DNA of 64,000 bases. Origin: Patescibacteria group bacterium (GTDB taxonomy: Bacteria > Patescibacteriota > Patescibacteriia > Magasanikbacterales > GWA2-37-8). Shown here one piece after another: positions 4,628-56,582 of the stretch. The position numbers and the translations under genes were made by a program. The stretch's first letter is position 1, and each line of letters starts with the position of its first letter. The notes under the pieces were generated by a model. The model saw nothing but the letters and a program-made list of their open reading frames with translations, was not told the origin of the DNA and searched no databases. The DNA lies in assembly GCA_041661385.1 (NCBI GenBank), contig JBAZUP010000001.1, positions 209,692 through 273,691 on the forward strand. Reading direction: 5' to 3'.

Positions 4628-4735
4628 CGCGAGCCAAACCAGTACAATAAACGAAATCCGGTTATATGCCGCTACGCGTCATATAGCCCTCATCGCTCGA
4701 AAATAAGAATTAATTTCTTATTTTACTCACTCTAT

Positions 4736-4808
4736 CGGGCTATAGCGCAGTTGGTAGCGCGCGTGGTTCGGGACCACGAGGCCGTGGGTTCAAGTCCCAC
4801 TAGCCCGA
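4736..4808 (+). tRNA. tRNA-Pro (anticodon CGG)
   Basis: Acceptor CGGGCTA/TAGCCCG, D-arm GCGC-AGTTGGTA-GCGC, anticodon stem CGTGG/CCACG with loop TTCGGGA, T-arm GTGGG-TTCAAGT-CCCAC. Confidence 0.7.
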
Positions 4809-5950: not shown

Positions 5951-6505
5951 TTATTTAGCTTTATTTTTTCGAAGATAAATATATATCATTAACAATGACC
6001 CGTAGTTCAAAATCATAAACCACGGCTGACCCCAAGAAAAACCATCAAATTTCCAATTTGAAAAGGGCCAAAGAAACGGTGTTGGATAAAATTTATAGCT
6101 ATGAGTGGGAATATCCATAATGATATGCATGAGCCATCCAATCATCACAATCGGCAAATCTCTCCAAGAAACAGATTTTCTAAATAAATATTTAATAATT
6201 AAAACCAGCGCAATAACTCCGAAGAAAACAAATAAACTATGTGAATAATTATATAATTGACTCGATAAAAGAAACGGTCCTCCCCCGCTTTGTTCTAGGG
6301 CAACAGAATTTTCAGGGCGGATAGGAATAATATTTATTCCTCTGAGGCGCATCCAAAGAAGCCAAATAATTGCCGGGGTAAATGCAAACAAATCCGGAAA
6401 CATTCCCCAAAAAGCCGCCAAAAATAAATTGAATTTAGTTTGTTTTTTCTTATTTATTCCTTTGACGGCTGCAGCGGCCCAGAGACCGTGAGAAATAATA
6501 TCCAT
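5951..6505 (-). CDS. YdjM/DUF457-like membrane-bound metal-dependent hydrolase
   Basis: Starts MDIISHGLW and has 4-5 TM segments, as in the DUF457 family. The start was moved to the internal Met to remove the overlap. Confidence 0.45.
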   Translation of the reverse strand: MDIISHGLWAAAAVKGINKKKQTKFNLFLAAFWGMFPDLFAFTPAIIWLLWMRLRGINIIPIRPENSVALEQSGGGPFLLSSQLYNYSHSLFVFFGVIALVLIIKYLFRKSVSWRDLPIVMIGWLMHIIMDIPTHSYKFYPTPFLWPFSNWKFDGFSWGQPWFMILNYGSLLMIYIYLRKNKAK

Positions 6506-10737: not shown

Positions 10738-11745
10738 TTATGCCCACCAACGCCCTAAATTTTTCCAGGATTCGCGAGTGATACTTTTAATTCTTTTGCG
10801 TTCAGCTTTCAGTTCTTCCCTTCTATTCCATAAATCCCTAATACCTTTTAAAATTTCCCTATCAAACCAAAAATTATATTTAAACTTTAATCCTTCATAC
10901 CAAAATATCAAGAAAAAATCAAGAATAAAGTTTGGCCATTGCTCATTTTTATAAATAGTAGCCAAGTGATTACGATAACTATTATATCGAATATAAAAAG
11001 GCTGCTTTTTCTTATTCTTAAATCTACCTAATAAAGACTTGTCTTCCGGTTCTTTAATACCCCGTTCATGATAGGCGGAAATACCGGTAAGCACCGCTGA
11101 ACCAAAACCGCCGAGCTGTAATTTCCACGCCAGATCGACATCTTCCTGATAAGAAAAATAACTTTCATCAAATAATTCACCGGGTCGGCATACAGCTCCA
11201 ACCGCTTGACGACTATAAATTGCAATAGCTGCTGATACCCCAAAAACATCATGTACCGGAGATTGTTCAAATACTTCATTTTGAAAATTTTTTCCGGCGC
11301 TAATATCGACAACTTGTCTATTTTTTCTAATCTGCAAACCAAGCGAGTCGATAATTGTTGTTTTAGTTCCATTTTGCATCCGAAGCAAACGCGGTGAAAC
11401 CGAACCAACTTTCGGATTTTTATCGAGATAATTGGTTAATTTTTCAAAAACCTCCGTTTCCAAAATAAGGTCCTGATTAATCACCGCAACATACGGCGAA
11501 GATGATTCGCGAAATAGAAAACTGTGAGCCGGAGCAAAACCGATATTTTTATTTTTAATAAAAATTCTAACCGGAACGCCAATTTTATCTTTTTGTTCGT
11601 TTATAAATTCAACCGATCGATCGGTAGAGCCGTTATCTAATATAAGCAACTCCCAATCTATGAAACTTTGACTCTTTAGGGAATCAAATAAGGCGGGTAA
11701 ATATTTTTCGCCATTCCATGTAACTAATTGAACACTAAGCTTCAT
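10738..11745 (-). CDS. Glycosyltransferase family 2
   Basis: MKLSVQLVTWNGEKYLPALFDSLKSQ...LDNGSTD. The ORF-track start is a TTG 27 bp upstream. The ATG at 11745 lies at the edge of repeat copy 1. Confidence 0.7.
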   Translation of the reverse strand: MKLSVQLVTWNGEKYLPALFDSLKSQSFIDWELLILDNGSTDRSVEFINEQKDKIGVPVRIFIKNKNIGFAPAHSFLFRESSSPYVAVINQDLILETEVFEKLTNYLDKNPKVGSVSPRLLRMQNGTKTTIIDSLGLQIRKNRQVVDISAGKNFQNEVFEQSPVHDVFGVSAAIAIYSRQAVGAVCRPGELFDESYFSYQEDVDLAWKLQLGGFGSAVLTGISAYHERGIKEPEDKSLLGRFKNKKKQPFYIRYNSYRNHLATIYKNEQWPNFILDFFLIFWYEGLKFKYNFWFDREILKGIRDLWNRREELKAERKRIKSITRESWKNLGRWWA

Positions 11746-11883
11746 AATCGTAATGAGTGAGTATAATGACAAATTTATTTGTCATTATCGAGCGAATTAG
11801 TTTATATCGGAGATATAATCGTAATGAGTGAGTATAATGACAAATTTATTTGTCATTATCGAGCGAATTAGTTTATATCGGAG
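11744..11883. repeat. Perfect tandem direct repeat: two 69-bp copies (11744-11812 and 11815-11883) separated by 2 bp (period 71 bp), each containing a 10-bp inverted repeat
   Basis: Copies are identical by eye: ATAATCGTAATGAGTGAGTATAATGACAAATTTATTTGTCATTATCGAGCGAATTAGTTTATATCGGAG. The internal palindrome is TAATGACAAA-TTTA-TTTGTCATTA. Copy 1 abuts the GT2 start codon and copy 2 overlaps the stop of the upstream GT2. Confidence 0.9.
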
Positions 11884-12737
11884 TTATTATCATGTACTAA
11901 ATCAATAACCCAGGTCACAGCGAGCACGAACGCTGCTATTATCGCGAGACAAATTCCCGCGAGAAACGATTCCCATTTAAAAAAATAATTTATCAAACTC
12001 TTTGCAAATTGATATTGTTTCCAAAATAACTTTTGTTTCGCGAAGCTTCTTCCTCCAAAATCTATTGCCTTAGCATCTGGAGTAAACCAAACTTCATAGC
12101 CAAGTTTTTTTGCCTCTTGGCACAAATCAACATCCTCAAACCAAATAAAAAATCTTTCATCAAATAATTTACCAAGATTACTATAAACCTCTCGGCTCAC
12201 CAGCATAAATGAGCCCTGCACACTATCTACTGCTTGCGCCTTTGAAAAATCAAATCCTGTTTGTAAATATTCATTCAGTAATTTGGGAAATATATGATGA
12301 ATTTTTAACAGTATTACCAGCTGATCAAAAAATTTCGGAAAACGACGCGGCAAAGCATTATTTTTTATGACGCCGGCTTCATTATACAAAGCCCCGCCAA
12401 CGATGCCGGCTTTGGGGTGCTGCTTTGCAAATTCAATCAATTTCTTTAAACTCCCCTCACCCACTTCCATATCGGGATTCAAAAGCAAAAAATATTTTCC
12501 ACTAGATTTTTTTACTAACTCATTATTAGCAGCCGCAAAACCGAGATTTTTAGAAAAAACTGTTAACGCTAAATCCGGAAATTTTTTTCTAATCTCGGTA
12601 ACTGTACCGTCGACAGAATTATTATCTGCCACCAGCTGCTCATAACTCAAACCGTCTGAACCTTTTTTAACCGATTCGAACTGCCTCAAAACAAAATCAG
12701 CCGAATTCCAGGTTACGGTAAGAATTGAGACATCCAT
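11868..12737 (-). CDS. Glycosyltransferase family 2
   Basis: MDVSILTVTWNSADFVLRQFESV...LVADNNSVDGT. The stop codon lies inside repeat copy 2. Confidence 0.7.
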   Translation of the reverse strand: MDVSILTVTWNSADFVLRQFESVKKGSDGLSYEQLVADNNSVDGTVTEIRKKFPDLALTVFSKNLGFAAANNELVKKSSGKYFLLLNPDMEVGEGSLKKLIEFAKQHPKAGIVGGALYNEAGVIKNNALPRRFPKFFDQLVILLKIHHIFPKLLNEYLQTGFDFSKAQAVDSVQGSFMLVSREVYSNLGKLFDERFFIWFEDVDLCQEAKKLGYEVWFTPDAKAIDFGGRSFAKQKLFWKQYQFAKSLINYFFKWESFLAGICLAIIAAFVLAVTWVIDLVHDNNSDIN

Positions 12738-12810
12738 AGTCGAAATGAGTAAAAGAAATGAAAAAATTTTATTTTTCTTAACAAATGAGAATATAGCGAG
12801 GCCCCGATAA

Positions 12811-13881: not shown

Positions 13882-13957
13882 AAAATAGATAATAAATTCG
13901 AGTTTAGTTTAGCAAAAAAACCGCCACTTGTAAACAAATGACGGTTAATTTATTTCT

Positions 13958-16078
13958 TTAAGCTAATACCGGTTTTTGAGCAAATTCCTTTACTTCTGAT
14001 TCATCTTTGAAAGCATGCGGGTATTTTGCAACCAGATAATCACGCAAGGCTTTTTCCCATGGTCTAACGGTGTTTACTTTTTCAGCAATAAGGCGTTTGG
14101 AAATTAGACATTCTCGTTTTGGTCTTGGAGTATAGAAAGTTTCGGAAAAATAATCAGACGAAACCGGTTTCACCTTAATTTCTGATTCATAACCAAGTAA
14201 AGAAACAATTTTTTCGGCAATCTCAAATCTACTGGCGGCACCGGGTGAAACCAGATGATAAATTCCGTTGGCTTTTTTATCAAGTAACACATTTATGGTG
14301 CGAGCGACATCCGGCGCATAAGAAAGCGTTCCGAATTTATCATTTACAACGTTTAATTCCTGGCTGCCGGAAGTAATTTGCGAAACCAATTTGCCGACAA
14401 ATTTTTTATCATATTTTGGACCCCCGCCAATCAACCATCCGAGGCGTAAAATTAAATGCTTTGGCGCATAATATTGCGTCATAAGTTCGCCCATATGCTT
14501 GGTTAAACCGTAGACGTTTAAAGGCAGCGGTTCATCATGTTCAGTGTACCAATCGCTACTGCCATCAAAAATATTTGCCGAACTGGTATACACTAATGTT
14601 GCACCATATTTAGCGGCAAGTTGAGCCATGGTTTTGGTAGCGAGTGTGTTTACCGTATAAGCTAACGGCAAATTTTTCTCACACGCTTCCAAATCCGTCA
14701 TAGCAGCAAGATGAACGATATAATCCGGCTTAAATTCCGAAATAATTTTTTCGGCATCGGCAAAATTAGTTACATCCAATTCTGATTGCCAATTTTCTGT
14801 CGGGTGCTTGGTGGTAGCGCAAACTAAGTATTTTCCTGAAAAAGAGTCATACAAAGTTCTACCAAGCGCCCCATCCGTGCCGGTAATAAGCATCTTTTTC
14901 CTTCCAACTTTTTCATCTTGTTCGGCTTCTAAAATTTGCTTAGCAGATTCCTTAGTTAGTGACTTGATCAATTTAAAATATTCAAAAGCTATCTTGTCCC
15001 AACTATATAATACCATCGCGCGTTGGGCAGATTTTAATCCAAGTTCAATTATTTCTTCACGGTGATCTGAAGCGTATTCAAACTGCCTGGCAAGCGAAGG
15101 AACATCCATTGAAAAGAATAACCCGGCATCTCCAAGAGGTTCACGATTTTCCTTTTTGTCGTTTGCGATCACACAAACCGCCCTACCCATCGCTTCGATA
15201 AGCGCTGGAGAATGTCCGCCTACTTCGGCGGCCCGCACATAACATAATGAATTTTTAACTAATTGTTTATAACGCTGACCAAACAAAAACCCGGTAAAAA
15301 TTACATTTTTTCCGGCATTCATTTTTATTTCTTCCACCAATTCCGGAGAGTAGCGGTTATCACCCACCATTACCAAGGGTAATTTACTACCGGATGCAGC
15401 GTGCGCCCTTACTACCAAAAGCGGATTATTTTCCGGTTCAAACCGGGCAACGTAAATAAAATATTTTTTGTAAAGCAATTTAAATTCATCAAGCACATCA
15501 ATGTCAGGTGTTTGTTCAGTTTCGATTTCGGTGCCATAAGGAATAAAAGCACTCGACATTCCCCGTTCTTTTTTATAAAACTCCTGCACACTGCCGGCAT
15601 CTGTTACAATTTGATGTGAAGCAATACCTGCGAGGTATGAACAAAGTTTTAAATAGGTACGAGCAAACTTGCCCCATTTTTTACGATGCCAATCCAGCCC
15701 ATCCACGCAAAATACAACTTTCTTTCCAAGAATTTTTGCCAGCAATGCAAACGGCGCATTTCCAACATTTACAACAATTACAACTGAAGCGGTATTATAT
15801 ATAAACACATGCAGTACGCTGATCAAAGAATGAAAAAGCGTATCCAAACTTTTACGCGCAATAGTTGGTAAATAAAATAACTTCACGCCTTTATATTCAA
15901 CGGGTTTGTTTTCAAAATAATTGGATCGGCAATATACCGAAACATCAGCGCCGAGCCCTTTTAGATTAACCGCAAGCTCTTCTGCAAGAGTTTCAAAACC
16001 ACCGTAAGAATTAGGAATTCCTCGGTGACCGAGAATAGCAATGCGAATTGGCTGAGTTTTTGTAGTAGTTTTCTCCAT
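13958..16078 (-). CDS. Fusion protein: GT4 glycosyltransferase (DUF1972/RgpA-like putative rhamnosyltransferase) plus dTDP-4-dehydrorhamnose reductase (RmlD)
   Basis: N-terminal roughly 390 aa read IRIAILGHRGIPNSYGGFETLAEEL... with a GT-B C-terminal half. The C-terminal roughly 310 aa read KMLITGTDGALGRTL (Rossmann fold) ... NVYGLTKHMGE (RmlD Y-x-x-x-K) ... RLGWLIGGG. Confidence 0.65.
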   Translation of the reverse strand: MEKTTTKTQPIRIAILGHRGIPNSYGGFETLAEELAVNLKGLGADVSVYCRSNYFENKPVEYKGVKLFYLPTIARKSLDTLFHSLISVLHVFIYNTASVVIVVNVGNAPFALLAKILGKKVVFCVDGLDWHRKKWGKFARTYLKLCSYLAGIASHQIVTDAGSVQEFYKKERGMSSAFIPYGTEIETEQTPDIDVLDEFKLLYKKYFIYVARFEPENNPLLVVRAHAASGSKLPLVMVGDNRYSPELVEEIKMNAGKNVIFTGFLFGQRYKQLVKNSLCYVRAAEVGGHSPALIEAMGRAVCVIANDKKENREPLGDAGLFFSMDVPSLARQFEYASDHREEIIELGLKSAQRAMVLYSWDKIAFEYFKLIKSLTKESAKQILEAEQDEKVGRKKMLITGTDGALGRTLYDSFSGKYLVCATTKHPTENWQSELDVTNFADAEKIISEFKPDYIVHLAAMTDLEACEKNLPLAYTVNTLATKTMAQLAAKYGATLVYTSSANIFDGSSDWYTEHDEPLPLNVYGLTKHMGELMTQYYAPKHLILRLGWLIGGGPKYDKKFVGKLVSQITSGSQELNVVNDKFGTLSYAPDVARTINVLLDKKANGIYHLVSPGAASRFEIAEKIVSLLGYESEIKVKPVSSDYFSETFYTPRPKRECLISKRLIAEKVNTVRPWEKALRDYLVAKYPHAFKDESEVKEFAQKPVLA

Positions 16079-16179
16079 ATTTCCGCTAATATTAGCGTAA
16101 ACCTAAACTTGATACGGAACAAATAATTATACATCAAAAAAGACCCTTTGTCAAGGGTCTTTTGAAAACGATTTTTTAC

Positions 16180-41429: not shown

Positions 41430-44024
41430 TTACTCATGAAGCTCCCAAATGAACCGCGCTACCGGGTTTGGCTTGCCGATAAGCGGATGGTGATGCAAAT
41501 TTATAAACGGCATGCCGTTACACTCTATAATACCCCACTTTTTACCGGCCGGCGAAACTGTCACATCATCAACGATGAAATCAAACCCGAGCAGCGGGTC
41601 GCCGATAGCGGCGGCGGCTTTTTCCAAAGCCGCTTTGATTTCCGGATGCGTTTCCTCGGTAATTTCAAAACTTGAACCGCCATAGGAAATGCCGACTTTT
41701 TCAGTAAGATCAATTTTTTTATCTTTCGGCAAAACTGTTTTAAGATTAAATCCGTTTCTAGCCAAAAATTCATTTGAAGATTGAGAAATTTTAAAATCTT
41801 TTACGCGCGGATCTTTGGCGGCATTTTTTAATTCAATTAATTCACTAATAGTATGGGTGCCGTCGCCAATAATGCGCGGAGGTGAACCGCCCAAAACTCC
41901 CGCAAGTTTTCCACCAATTACTGTGCCTCGGAATACGTCTCCGATCAAATGTTCTTCCATAACCACCCAGTGGCATAATTGCTTGGCTATTTTAAAAGCC
42001 TTACGAAGCTGCTCTTCATTATAAATATGAGTGGTGGTGTGGCGGCCGCGAGAACCAAGCCTCGGTTTAATAATAACCGGCTTTTCCAATTCACGAAACC
42101 TATTTAACAATTTCTTATATTTTGAATATCCGCCACCCGGTGAAACCGGCACCCCGGCCGACATTAATTTTTTCTTGATTATGGCTTTATCGTCTAGCCA
42201 AAATTCAATCTCGGTATCCTTAAATTTATCAGGTCGCGGCAAACCAGAAAAATACATAACCTTATCGCCAATTTTTGCGTCGTAAAAATCAACCTCACGC
42301 CCAAATATTTTTGCTCCTCTCATTTCAATCCCCTTTTTTTCAGCTTCCTCCCATAAAACTTTTGCCCGTTCAATCGTCCAAGTTTCACGATTATTATGGA
42401 ATCCAACCAACTTCAACTTTTCAAATATTCGCCACCAAAGCATAAAAAAATTATCCAGAAGTCGACTAAACGCCCTAAAAATCCCCACTCTTGCCATGGA
42501 CCGATTCAATGGCGACATCATTATAATCATTGATTCACTTATCCACTGCACATTATGCGGAACCGGATTATTACCGCAATATTCGCATTTCTTCGGCGCA
42601 AACAGATTACTGAAATTGGACGGGATAAATAAAAACGGCTTCAGTTTTTTCCGTTTAACATTAGACGTCTTTCCGGTAATTATTTTGTAATATTCAGGCA
42701 GCATAGTATCAACAGCTTTTTTTAGGGAAGTTAAAAGACAAATCTTTTTAAAATCTGCGGCGTTGTTTTCATTTCCGTACAAAAGCACGTCTAAGCCGGT
42801 CGCCGGAACTGAGCGGCTTTGATAATTAATAAACGAAAGAGCCATATCCGCCGCAAAATGGTTGGTTTGAAGCGCCGCTAAAAATGGTGGAATTATAAAA
42901 TTGTTTTCCAATAATACTTTTTTCCAGGCGGCCTTTAATTCTGCCAAATAATTCACCTGGCTGAACCCGCCGCCGCAAGTCACACCATAATAAAACGAAA
43001 TCACAATATAAGTAAGGGCCATGCTCGGCATAATCTGATTATTGTTCAGCGCTTCCGCTACGCCATTTGGGGTAAGTGGAATATTTAAATTGTAATCATT
43101 GCTAATAAGTTTTTCATCTTCCAAAAACAGTCTAACTCTTTTACCGTTTTTTAAACCCCAAAACAAAAAGGTTCCCTTATTCTCCGCTTCAAAAAATGCC
43201 CCGGCAATACCGTTGAAATTTTTCCTAAACGAAGACAGGGTCTTTTTATTAAACATCAGTTCAAAGATAGCCGTTTTTTTATTTAGGTGGTGTTGTAAAA
43301 TTAAATTCTTTACAATTTCTTCCTGATCCAAATAAATTAAATTCGAATTTTCCTGTCCGGGAAATAATTTCCATAAATGATAATTTCCTCTGCTGATTTG
43401 ATCAGAATATTTTTCGCACAACAAATTATCTTCTCTAAAAAATGTTTTATTCAAAATTTTAAGCAATCGGTTAGATTTATAACCAAGATCTTCCGCAATT
43501 ATTTCTTTTATTACATTAGCAACAGCGCTTTTATCATAACCTTTGGTGATATGTATCGGCTGGTGCTTATTTTTTAAACTGAAGAGGTGCAAGCGCTTTT
43601 CGTCGAGATTTGAATCATGAACCAAAAAACCTCTGGGAAACGATGAATTATTGAGCGATACACCTGAACAAGCCAAAGTAAAAATATATTTATTGTTTTT
43701 ATGATTATTTACCAATGCCTGCAACCAAGTAGAATTGAAAAAAAATGCGTGAGTAAGCGGGCCATGATGGTCGGCGGTGGAAACATAATATTGATTCCAT
43801 AATTCCACTCGCGCTTCTTCCGCCGTCTTTTTATCAAATAATTCTAAAATCTTAGCTTCAACAACCCCAAGAAACTCATTTTTCAAATCCTCACTAACAT
43901 TTATTTGCTCATTAACAACTGAAGAAGCATACTCAAAAATCGATTCTTGACCGTGGTCATCGATAATATTTTTTAATACTGGTTTGTCGTCAAAAACTTT
44001 TTTTCTGATTATGCGCCTCGACAT
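41430..44024 (-). CDS. Large protein: roughly 540-aa N-terminal domain of unknown function fused to a C-terminal RimK-like ATP-grasp ligase domain
   Basis: The C-terminal roughly 320 aa read ...VIIKPRLGSRGRHTTTHIYNEEQL...GFDFIVDDVTVSPAGKKWGIIECNGMPF, the RimK/ATP-grasp pattern. The N-terminal part has no recognisable motif. Confidence 0.5.
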   Translation of the reverse strand: MSRRIIRKKVFDDKPVLKNIIDDHGQESIFEYASSVVNEQINVSEDLKNEFLGVVEAKILELFDKKTAEEARVELWNQYYVSTADHHGPLTHAFFFNSTWLQALVNNHKNNKYIFTLACSGVSLNNSSFPRGFLVHDSNLDEKRLHLFSLKNKHQPIHITKGYDKSAVANVIKEIIAEDLGYKSNRLLKILNKTFFREDNLLCEKYSDQISRGNYHLWKLFPGQENSNLIYLDQEEIVKNLILQHHLNKKTAIFELMFNKKTLSSFRKNFNGIAGAFFEAENKGTFLFWGLKNGKRVRLFLEDEKLISNDYNLNIPLTPNGVAEALNNNQIMPSMALTYIVISFYYGVTCGGGFSQVNYLAELKAAWKKVLLENNFIIPPFLAALQTNHFAADMALSFINYQSRSVPATGLDVLLYGNENNAADFKKICLLTSLKKAVDTMLPEYYKIITGKTSNVKRKKLKPFLFIPSNFSNLFAPKKCEYCGNNPVPHNVQWISESMIIMMSPLNRSMARVGIFRAFSRLLDNFFMLWWRIFEKLKLVGFHNNRETWTIERAKVLWEEAEKKGIEMRGAKIFGREVDFYDAKIGDKVMYFSGLPRPDKFKDTEIEFWLDDKAIIKKKLMSAGVPVSPGGGYSKYKKLLNRFRELEKPVIIKPRLGSRGRHTTTHIYNEEQLRKAFKIAKQLCHWVVMEEHLIGDVFRGTVIGGKLAGVLGGSPPRIIGDGTHTISELIELKNAAKDPRVKDFKISQSSNEFLARNGFNLKTVLPKDKKIDLTEKVGISYGGSSFEITEETHPEIKAALEKAAAAIGDPLLGFDFIVDDVTVSPAGKKWGIIECNGMPFINLHHHPLIGKPNPVARFIWELHE

Positions 44025-56129: not shown

Positions 56130-56420
56130 CTAATCTTCAAAAACTTCAGGAACAACCAATTCATTTAATTCTGTCATCGGCATTTGGCCAAGTATTTTTT
56201 CCTGACGCCCTGAATTTCGCGATATGTCATCACGAAAAACATCCGTGAGGCCGGTAACCTGAGAAGTGATTTCAATTCCGTCAGTATTTACCTCGTTTAA
56301 TATTGTCATGTAATCTAAAACAACAGAAATGGTTTCTGTGTAGCGCTTTTCTTCTTCTGGAGAAAGACCAATGCGCGCAAGTGATGCAATTTTTTTTACT
56401 TCAGCAATTGATAAAGCCAT
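56130..56420 (-). CDS. gatC: Glu-tRNA(Gln)/Asp-tRNA(Asn) amidotransferase subunit C
   Basis: MALSIAEVKKIASLARIGLSPEE, the typical GatC N-terminus. The ORF-track N-terminal 23 aa are likely spurious. Confidence 0.7.
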   Translation of the reverse strand: MALSIAEVKKIASLARIGLSPEEEKRYTETISVVLDYMTILNEVNTDGIEITSQVTGLTDVFRDDISRNSGRQEKILGQMPMTELNELVVPEVFED

Positions 56421-56582
56421 ATTTAAATGAGTGAACGAAATGAATCCATAACTCTGAAAACGAATGAAAATATATGGGACGAAATCCATATATTTATACT
56501 TCGCCAGTATATCATATATTTTAGGGCTTAGGCAAGAGAAAAATACTTGAATAATTCAGTTAAATGCTGTATAAATTGAGAT

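Follow-up and report, generated by a model that had tools for sequence, protein, structure and literature searches.

A recent tandem duplication in a Patescibacteria glycan operon and the putative family of hairpin elements to which its unit belongs

Bacteria of the Candidate Phyla Radiation (CPR; Patescibacteria) cannot be grown alone, and many of them lack Shine-Dalgarno sites. To our knowledge almost nothing is known about the cis-acting RNA or DNA signals that they use. The closest described elements are found in other bacteria. They include small intergenic repeats such as REP and Correia elements, whose copies keep the sequence of their palindrome, and the stem-loops of Gram-positive bacteria that stabilise transcripts or direct their processing, for example 5' stem-loops that block RNase J1 or those of RNase Y-processed operons such as cggR-gapA. 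Tandem duplication of short segments is also well described: microhomology-mediated tandem duplications (MTDs) are described as common and rapidly reversible (bioRxiv 10.1101/2020.03.03.972455, PMC8639346; bioRxiv 10.64898/2026.02.28.708716). The locus described here is a tandem repeat between two glycosyltransferase genes of a Patescibacteria group bacterium (order Magasanikbacterales). It lies in a stretch of 64,000 nucleotides, hereafter the window, which covers positions 209,692 to 273,691 of contig JBAZUP010000001.1 (assembly GCA_041661385.1). The duplication itself is an ordinary event; the interest lies in the unit that was copied.

The duplicated unit and its relatives

The repeat separates two genes coding GT2-family glycosyltransferases of 335 and 289 amino acids (GT2-335 and GT2-289). 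It is composed of two head-to-tail units of 71 nt, identical at 70 of 71 positions (99%), and is called by TRF at 11744–11891 with a period of 71, 2.1 copies, 97% matches and a score of 282. Two identical 69-mers (11744–11812 and 11815–11883) are separated by a 2-nt joint, as the earlier note on this DNA had described; TRF and a repeat search agree on this architecture, which cannot be a product of chance. The sole mismatch in the 71-nt register is A at 11813 against T at 11884, and the single-copy allele presented below also has T at the position of 11813. The features of the locus are listed here, with scores from R1, a covariance model built from four sequences of the family defined below.

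10738–11745, minus strand: GT2-335 gene, downstream of the repeat (Pfam PF00535 at 2.8e-21)
11744–11814, minus strand: proximal tandem unit, adjoining GT2-335 (R1 82 bits)
11763–11788, minus strand: hairpin of the proximal unit, with perfect 12-nt arms
11813–11814, AT on either strand: joint between the 69-mers
11815–11885, minus strand: distal tandem unit, adjoining GT2-289 (R1 75 bits)
11834–11859, minus strand: hairpin of the distal unit, identical to the proximal hairpin
11868–12737, minus strand: GT2-289 gene, upstream of the repeat, whose stop codon TAA (11870–11868) is inside the distal unit
11886–11891, minus strand: GATAAT, a candidate imperfect microhomology in the D-N codons of GT2-289, 71 nt upstream of the GATTAT at the unit end

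On the coding strand the proximal unit reads AT-CTCCGATATAAACTAATTCGCTCG-[hairpin]-ACTCACTCATTACGATTAT, its final two bases being the AT of the GT2-335 start codon (11745–11743). The distal unit carries the last codons and the stop of GT2-289 (..TCC GAT ATA AAC TAA), whose C-terminal residues (..SDIN*) are encoded within the element. The gene coordinates thus agree with the earlier description of one copy ending at the downstream ATG and the other holding the upstream stop. The tail of the distal unit reads ATA at the joint, so that no second start codon is created. The sequence spanning the joint is CGATTATATCTCCGAT; the outer flanks of the repeat are GATAATAACTCC on the left and CGATTATGAAGC on the right, and in a single-copy state both flanks and one unit would fit into ~95 nt. 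Each unit features an inverted repeat with perfect 12-nt arms, ATAATGACAAAT and ATTTGTCATTAT, and 2 nt between them; the inverted repeat had been noticed before, with arms given as 10 bp, which is shorter than those found here. As RNA it is predicted to fold into an 11-bp stem with a 4-nt loop (dG -10.1 kcal/mol, z = -6).

Sequence comparison identifies the duplicated unit as one copy of a family of dispersed hairpin elements of ~70 nt, a membership that the earlier note had missed. The family was defined on two alignments (A3 and A5) and on model R1. Its members have a conserved 5' flank (..ATATAAAC..TCGYTCG), a perfect, AU-rich stem of 10–12 bp with no fixed sequence, and a G-poor tail that is likewise conserved (ACTCAYTCATT..TAT or ..TATG) and runs to the start of the following gene or to its immediate vicinity. 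All copies are co-oriented with that gene. Five loci were found in ~80 kb of sequence from the window species and one in another species. The tandem pair represents one of them, named copy B; the others from the window species are the following.

12732–12800, minus strand: copy A, diverged, in the 73-nt gap between the gene of a PGI-like protein and GT2-289, found by local alignment with copy B
4677–4747, plus strand: copy between tRNA-Pro(GGG) and tRNA-Pro(CGG) (R1 36.3 bits, E = 7.7e-5, outside the training set)
5115–5188 of contig L014, same species: copy in the 5' untranslated region of a zinc-finger protein gene (R1 E = 2e-5, outside the training set)
56415–56479, minus strand: weak partial relative in the gatC leader (second model R2, 23 bits, E = 0.04)

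The tail of copy A, ACTCATTTCGACTATG, runs into the ATG of GT2-289. Its local alignment with copy B scores 26, compared with 14.2 ± 2.6 for shuffled sequences, 2 of 2000 of which reach 26. The 73-nt spacer between PGI and GT2-289 and the 51-nt spacer that separates GT2-289 from GT2-335 in the single-copy allele have ACTCATTWCGAYTATG in common, ending in the start codon. The tRNA copy is organized as TCGCTCG-AAAATAAGAA-TTAAT-TTCTTATTTT-ACTCACTC-TAT, directly followed by the tRNA 5' end. The L014 copy has the stem GTAATCAGTGAA/TTCACTGATTAC and the tail ACTCATTCATTTCATTT-ATG, with a TGn-TATACT promoter ~60 nt upstream. The gatC leader carries a TCATT-N6-AC-TCATT motif 5 nt before the ATG. In the other species (contigs L010/L011, GCA_021812425.1) the copy occupies a different gap of the syntenic operon, between GT2 genes coding proteins of 277 and 362 amino acids. 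Its tail is identical to ACTCACTCATTACGATTAT of copy B at 19 of 19 positions, while the neighbouring proteins are just 51–59% identical, and its stem, GAAATGAAAAT/ATTTTCATTTC, was altered by compensatory substitutions and is again perfect.

Across the family 95% of the stem cells are paired in the model-based alignment, compared with at most 61% in slid controls, and 4 of 10 stem pairs are altered on both sides; these figures come from few sequences in an alignment fitted to R1. The palindrome appears to behave as a conserved hairpin, either of RNA or of single-stranded DNA. Of the readings offered previously, this agrees with that of an RNA hairpin lacking a U-tract, because stem sequence changes while pairing is kept and the tail that follows has no U-tract. 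The 24-nt palindrome has no further occurrence in the window (0 expected) and its 10-nt half-site is not enriched there (13 matches with at most one mismatch against 11.8 expected); the idea that the half-site marks a regulon was dropped on this count.

The family is apparently undescribed. The literature searched holds no description of such an element in Patescibacteria. In the window only three tRNAs reach the Rfam gathering threshold, and between 11500 and 13000 no match attains even half of the gathering score of its family. Viral contigs have no match to the palindrome or the tail, and R2 detects no further copies in the sequences scanned. A PGI-based search for related loci in the genome collection returned a single, unrelated Elusimicrobia match.

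Two other explanations of the conserved segments were discarded. The 51-nt spacer is not recognizable as decayed neighbouring coding sequence, since local alignments with 200 nt on each side, on both strands, are no better than shuffles. TCATT-N6-AC-TCATT is not a general translation signal, as it precedes only three genes in the 64 kb and none of the other ~47 starts.

A mini-ORF (short open reading frame) opens at an ATG in the left stem arm (11743–11793 and 11797–11856, minus strand; 2961–3011 in L002, a contig with the single-copy allele). In the single-copy allele it codes MTNKFVIILTHYDYEA* and ends at a TAG overlapping the GT2-335 start (ATGAAGCTTAG); in the two-copy allele the distal unit yields a 19-aa version that ends at the second TAA. 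It is not a conserved feature, being absent from the A, L014 and tRNA copies and set in another frame in L010. A further observation concerns the tail of the element in L010 (5160–5186) and L011 (5211–5237), where an A/G polymorphism (GATTATA in L010, GATTATG in L011) decides whether an in-frame ATG is present 21 nt ahead of the annotated start of the 362-aa GT2, whose amino terminus may consequently differ between strains.

A possible relative was found outside Patescibacteria. In JGI metagenomes the palindrome is present in one contig only (L007), of an Alistipes-like organism (Bacteroidota) with 52–59% G+C. There (6010–6081) the same 24-nt palindrome is upstream of a GNAT gene, and its flanks, CGCTCG-G-[stem]-CCTCGCTTATTCG, are similar to those of the family (position-weight test: 3' flank p = 1.7e-4, 5' flank p = 0.045; R2 35 bits). 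Contig L020 (2190–2330), with a 99% identical NhaC antiporter, carries a different insert of ~100 nt within the same flanks (CCCGYTCGG ... CTCGCTTATTCG), and relatives with an 85% identical NhaC lack the region entirely. This may be a related, replaceable hairpin slot or a coincidence.

Copy number, empty sites and origin of the second unit

Independent assemblies of the same population were found via exact-protein look-ups, and copy number was read from these assemblies, not from the reads themselves. In SRR18595301 the Logan contig L001 (k=31) ends 14 nt after the GT2-289 stop, its final 31-mer, ACTCCGATATAAACTAATTCGCTCGATAATG, being the last k-mer with the unique base that precedes the 69-mer. 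Contig L005 from the same run opens with TTTGTCATTATACTCACTCATTACGATTATG, the first k-mer with the G that follows the 69-mer. Both contigs are 100% identical to the window. Their breaks imply that in the reads a second sequence precedes the 69-mer and a second one follows it, and the window joint (..GATTAT-AT-CTCC..) supplies both. This de Bruijn loop signature is good, though indirect, evidence that the duplication is present in the SRR18595301 reads; the breaks fit a pure two-copy population or a copy-number mixture alike.

The single-copy allele is found in ERZ27249449, in a 44-kb MEGAHIT k141 contig (L002/L004) that has one unit and a 51-nt spacer. Its DNA is 99.93–99.97% identical to the window and both of its GT2 proteins are identical to those of the window, while the distance from CATGAT to TATGAAGC is 71 nt instead of 142 nt. 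The single-copy path could in principle be wrong, but a path of this kind needs spanning reads. The duplication is, on this sequence evidence, very recent and its copy number differs between near-identical populations, one unit being found in ERZ27249449 and two in the window and in the SRR18595301 graph. The proposal of a very recent duplication is borne out by this comparison with a close relative, as suggested in the earlier note. The exact 69-mer has no match in 185,579 species genomes.

The orthologous sites of related loci (L008–L013) are empty. The junction of the GT2 pair is an 11-nt overlap in L008, a 1-nt gap in L009 and an ATGA-type 4-nt overlap in L010/L011, L012 and L013; PGI and the first GT2 gene are 1 nt apart in L010 and L012. 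Reciprocally, the 277-aa and 362-aa GT2 genes that are separated by the element in L010/L011 overlap in the window. Since the orthologous pairs of relatives overlap or nearly touch, both spacers of the window species are lineage-specific. The blocks measure 71 nt for copy B (142 nt in the window), 69 nt in L010 and ~72 nt for copy A. Comparison of the GT2-289 carboxyl terminus with that of L008 (..IDLVHD|NNSDIN* vs ..HDLFTD|YEA*), together with the DNA, shows the ancestral junction ..GAy TAT GAA GCT TAG, in which the upstream stop overlapped the downstream ATGAAGC; in the window species a 71-nt block is found between GAT and TATGAAGC.

The family copies entered as blocks of ~70 nt, at sites where the genes of relatives overlap or lie end to end. 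With copy B in place, GT2-289 runs into the block and stops at its in-frame TAA, with the downstream ATG retained. Each block has TAT or ATTAT on both sides. These brackets may stem from a target duplication, but TAT occurs often in this AT-rich DNA and the left-hand register is variable. Note that the first GT2 gene starts with GTG directly after the PGI stop in relatives (L010 2502, L012 9231) and with ATG in the window (12735–12737), where copy A sits (..CGACTATGGAT vs ..TAATGTGGAT).

The tandem pair probably results from a recent local duplication of the resident element copy by slippage or unequal exchange. In the proposed event replication would have slipped between two imperfect repeats that flank the palindrome, GATAAT and GATTAT, or the two would have exchanged unequally, leaving one odd base at the joint. 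GATTAT is found at the unit end (11744–11749) and at the joint (11815–11820, minus strand). With 69-nt perfect direct repeats, the second unit should be lost easily.

Several points weigh against this interpretation. GATAAT and GATTAT match at 5 of 6 positions and the exact microhomology is only 2–3 nt (AT or GAT). Slippage predicts the joint GATTAT-AA-CTCC, whereas the window has GATTAT-AT-CTCC; base 11813 fits neither parental flank, and no simple event gives the joint cleanly. The unit limits fall within ~4 nt of the element limits defined by homology to L010, a better match than random slippage predicts, which fits element re-insertion. More broadly, the family rests on about 5 independent copies, the true state of ERZ27249449 and any heterogeneity within a sample are deduced from assemblies, and the near-neutrality and RNA-level role proposed in the next section are deductions from sequence.

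A second insertion of a still-active, target-specific mobile element is an unlikely origin, with arguments on both sides. In such a scheme an element of ~68 nt would enter at TAT with a 3-bp duplication and the right junction (..CGAT^TAT) would recreate the target, giving E1-TAT-E2-TAT. Family copies do appear as block insertions at differing sites across lineages, each with its TAT or ATTAT brackets, and the 71-nt period is as long as the original insertion when this is measured against an empty site of the L008 type. Unit limits and element limits coincide, and the copy at the joint begins TAT-AT, like the L010 copy (TAT-ATAGAG), while the older copy begins AAT-AA. Nevertheless, the element has no terminal inverted repeats and the window codes no transposase. 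The two units are identical even through the variable stem, all other copies are ~70% identical to copy B, so that no recently active master copy is evident, and the exact 69-mer is missing from the species genomes searched. Re-insertion requires two extra substitutions in the older copy compared with one for slippage, and the brackets lose weight from the frequency of TAT in this DNA and from the position of the left-hand TAT, 10–18 nt from the ATATAA box. Slippage is favoured on balance.

In a more far-reaching version of re-insertion, which we consider doubtful and less likely still, the unit would be an active representative of mobile leader cassettes of ~70 nt, an undescribed class of Patescibacteria or beyond, and the tandem pair would be a fresh second insertion. 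Such cassettes, hairpin-centred and without terminal inverted repeats, would enter at TAT immediately 5' of gene starts. Overlapping genes would be split by them and would receive a stop codon, a stem-loop and a translation leader that is unstructured and free of Shine-Dalgarno sites. Mobility, if retained, would make the element one of the rare mobile elements of such reduced genomes.

Possible role, alternative readings and genomic context

After the duplication GT2-289 keeps its stop and the 51 nt beyond, GT2-335 keeps the 69 nt before its ATG, and the joint turns the extra ATG into ATA. As each gene keeps its original local context, the duplication should be nearly neutral, its probable effect on the intercistronic RNA being limited to 71 nt of extra length and one more hairpin. 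The hairpins are retained in predicted folds, and in the two-copy RNA the arms can also pair across units. A changed expression of the downstream glycosyltransferases, via polarity, stability or a fortuitous promoter, is conceivable. The one- and two-copy populations represent a natural experiment on glycosyltransferase expression that could be read in metatranscriptomes.

The orientation of the element, its place at gene or tRNA starts, its free-sequence stem and its G-poor unstructured tail suggest, as the most likely reading, an action through RNA in a genome with few Shine-Dalgarno motifs. The stem-loop and the unstructured leader would insulate or stabilise the downstream cistron or tRNA, or mark it for processing. 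Alternatively, it is a small insertion element that the host tolerates and that persists in this orientation and position only. Pairing of the 16S rRNA 3' end with ACUCACUCAUU is a candidate alternative to the Shine-Dalgarno interaction. The family is a testable candidate for uncoupling, stabilising or initiating translation of cistrons in these organisms. Note that AACUAAUU (11795–11802, minus strand), which is in the 5' flank of the element and contains the stop codon, is perfectly complementary to AAUUAGUU (11721–11728, minus strand) in codons 6–8 of GT2-335, and that the long-range helix encloses the hairpin and the start codon in predicted folds. This extended fold has a z of only -2 in the single-copy allele and was treated as chance.

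A selected copy-number or phase-variable switch is improbable. It supposes that a sigma-70 promoter of the distal unit drives GT2-335 and the downstream glycosyltransferases through a ~65-nt hairpin-containing leader, thereby changing the surface glycan. The hexamers TTGTCA and GATTAT reported in each copy are indeed present, spaced by 17 nt, but the complete promoter that they were taken for is a match of 9 of 12 consensus positions, and matches of this type number 21 in the region compared with 24.4 ± 4.6 in shuffled sequence. Because the -10 of the single-copy state overlaps with the ATG, only the two-copy state could give rise to a translatable transcript; near-identical populations do have different copy numbers, the genes concerned belong to a surface-glycan operon, and copies B, L010 and A retain GATTAT or GACTAT. 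On the other hand, the promoter-like -35 falls in the free-sequence stem, and neither the tRNA copy nor the L014 copy has it. The -10 of the tRNA copy would have to be inside the tRNA itself, and the L014 copy is downstream of its own, separate TGn-TATACT promoter. These positions indicate that a promoter is not a conserved property of the element, and textbook promoters exist elsewhere in the genome, for example the 12/12 match at 16154–16126. Phase variation, which had been put forward as one possible reason for the perfect identity, is not supported: only two copy states are known, from separate samples, the repeats known from phase variation do not resemble a unit of 71 nt, and the one- and two-copy alleles are the same over the 69 nt upstream of the ATG and around the stop, no reading frame being touched.

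That the palindrome is the operator of a dimeric transcription factor, doubled by the duplication, is very improbable. Its perfect 12-nt inverted repeat has a fixed position before the start codon and palindromes are found at the same place in all family copies, yet the half-sites differ between copies (ATAATGACAAAT, GAAATGAAAAT, GTAATCAGTGAA, AAAATAAGAA) and still pair, as expected of a folded strand and not of duplex DNA read by a protein. The window palindrome is unique in the 64 kb and the downstream genes (glycosyltransferases, a tRNA, a zinc-finger protein) are unrelated, so the operator put forward earlier is not upheld. An intrinsic terminator was also rejected: the stem has 2 G-C pairs of 11–12 and the tail, ACUCACUC, has no U-tract. 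A terminator scan does not flag the hairpin and flags canonical terminators nearby, e.g. at 13946–13919. Finally, short tandem repeats are a known source of assembly error and one independent assembly has a single unit, but it is very unlikely that the assembler made the second unit, as independent k=31 contigs break at exactly the two bases predicted from the window joint, that joint is a specific 2-nt sequence and not a collapsed or expanded perfect repeat, and no identical dispersed copy that could mimic the breaks was found in ~80 kb of sequence of the species or in the genome-collection scan.

The glycan operon codes, in order, a GT4-RmlD fusion, a PGI-like SIS protein, four GT2 proteins, a nucleotidyltransferase, a 422-aa protein without Pfam match, and YdjM. 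Homologues cover 100% of the length of GT2-335, which supports its annotated start. A protein identical to GT2-335 is present at NCBI under a metagenome-assembled genome named 'Patescibacteria group bacterium', and its nearest named homologues are from Candidatus Magasanikbacteria. Bacterial markers of the window include DnaK, DnaJ, GatA, a short YidC and CTP synthase.

The GT4-RmlD fusion is a single 706-aa open reading frame (13958–16078, minus strand) in which an RmlD-type (dTDP-4-dehydrorhamnose reductase) domain is joined to a DUF1972/GT4 glycosyltransferase. The gene is missing between YtxH and PGI in the syntenic loci L010 and L012. In the window it is preceded by a perfect TTGACA-17-TATAAT promoter (12/12; 16154–16126, minus strand) and directly followed by a canonical GC-stem/T-run terminator (13946–13919, minus strand). 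This CPR host employs textbook sigma-70 signals, and the glycan genes from PGI onwards may form a separate transcription unit. A Shine-Dalgarno-like motif is upstream of only a handful among the 50 long open reading frames of the window. Several genes have a TATAAT-like box just 10–20 nt before the ATG, which suggests very short leaders. Elsewhere in the window, the C-terminal ~250 residues of an 864-aa protein (41430–44024, minus strand) are similar to the ligase domain of cyanophycin synthetase and to GshAB-type ATP-grasp enzymes.

Comparison with known element classes

As an event, the duplication resembles MTDs and slippage duplications: a single-copy segment becomes two head-to-tail copies, a near-identical lineage keeps one, short similar sequences are found exactly one period apart with the palindrome between them, and reversibility is expected. 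It differs from them by the imperfect microhomology, by one joint base that comes from neither parent and by a unit that coincides with a pre-existing insertion element.

That element shares with Correia/NEMIS, ERIC/IRU, RUP, BOX, REP/BIME and MITEs a size of ~70 nt, a non-coding nature, several copies per genome and a central hairpin. As in small intergenic repeats of the Correia, REP and MITE types, it is present or absent at orthologous sites, intercistronic and co-transcribed, with a possible TAT target duplication. Unlike them it has neither terminal inverted repeats nor a known partner transposase, its host is a reduced CPR bacterium, it is strictly co-oriented with the downstream gene, ending at or next to the gene start, and it keeps its flanks rather than the sequence of its stem. 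With MITEs it has in common that it is small, non-coding, multicopy and present or absent at a given site, as seen from the empty sites of L008–L013 and of the window; its ends (AT[CTCC]GATATAA.. and ..CTCATTACGAT) lack complementarity, which is confined to the central hairpin. It deviates from REP/REPIN sequences in the non-conserved palindrome and the lack of GTAG, and no RAYT gene was noted among the annotated open reading frames in a search confined to the 64 kb. Integron attC sites, in which complementary R''/R' cores (RYYYAAC / GTTRRRY) border an imperfect palindrome, are distinct, the flanks TCGYTCG and ACTCACTC being non-complementary here and without a GTTRRRY core. In contrast to a TIGR (tandem interspaced guide RNA) array, with its many units, variable spacers and adjacent Tas gene (PMC12045711), the locus has two identical units, no variable part and GT2 genes on both sides.

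Putative mobile promoters (PMC3575422) are likewise highly similar upstream regions that precede unrelated genes within a genome and across species. The present family differs in that it has no convincing conserved hexamers, its conserved part being the leader (hairpin and tail) and not the -35/-10, and in that one copy is downstream of a separate promoter and another precedes a tRNA within a tRNA pair.

The last class to be compared is that of the Gram-positive stabiliser stem-loops. The known ones are not dispersed families, whereas the elements described here are dispersed, are known from sequence alone and have conserved single-stranded flanks (TCGYTCG, ACTCAYTCATT) without a known reader. 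In both, the stem-loop is free in sequence and precedes a short unstructured leader and the start codon, and both are positioned between cistrons and, plausibly, between tRNAs.

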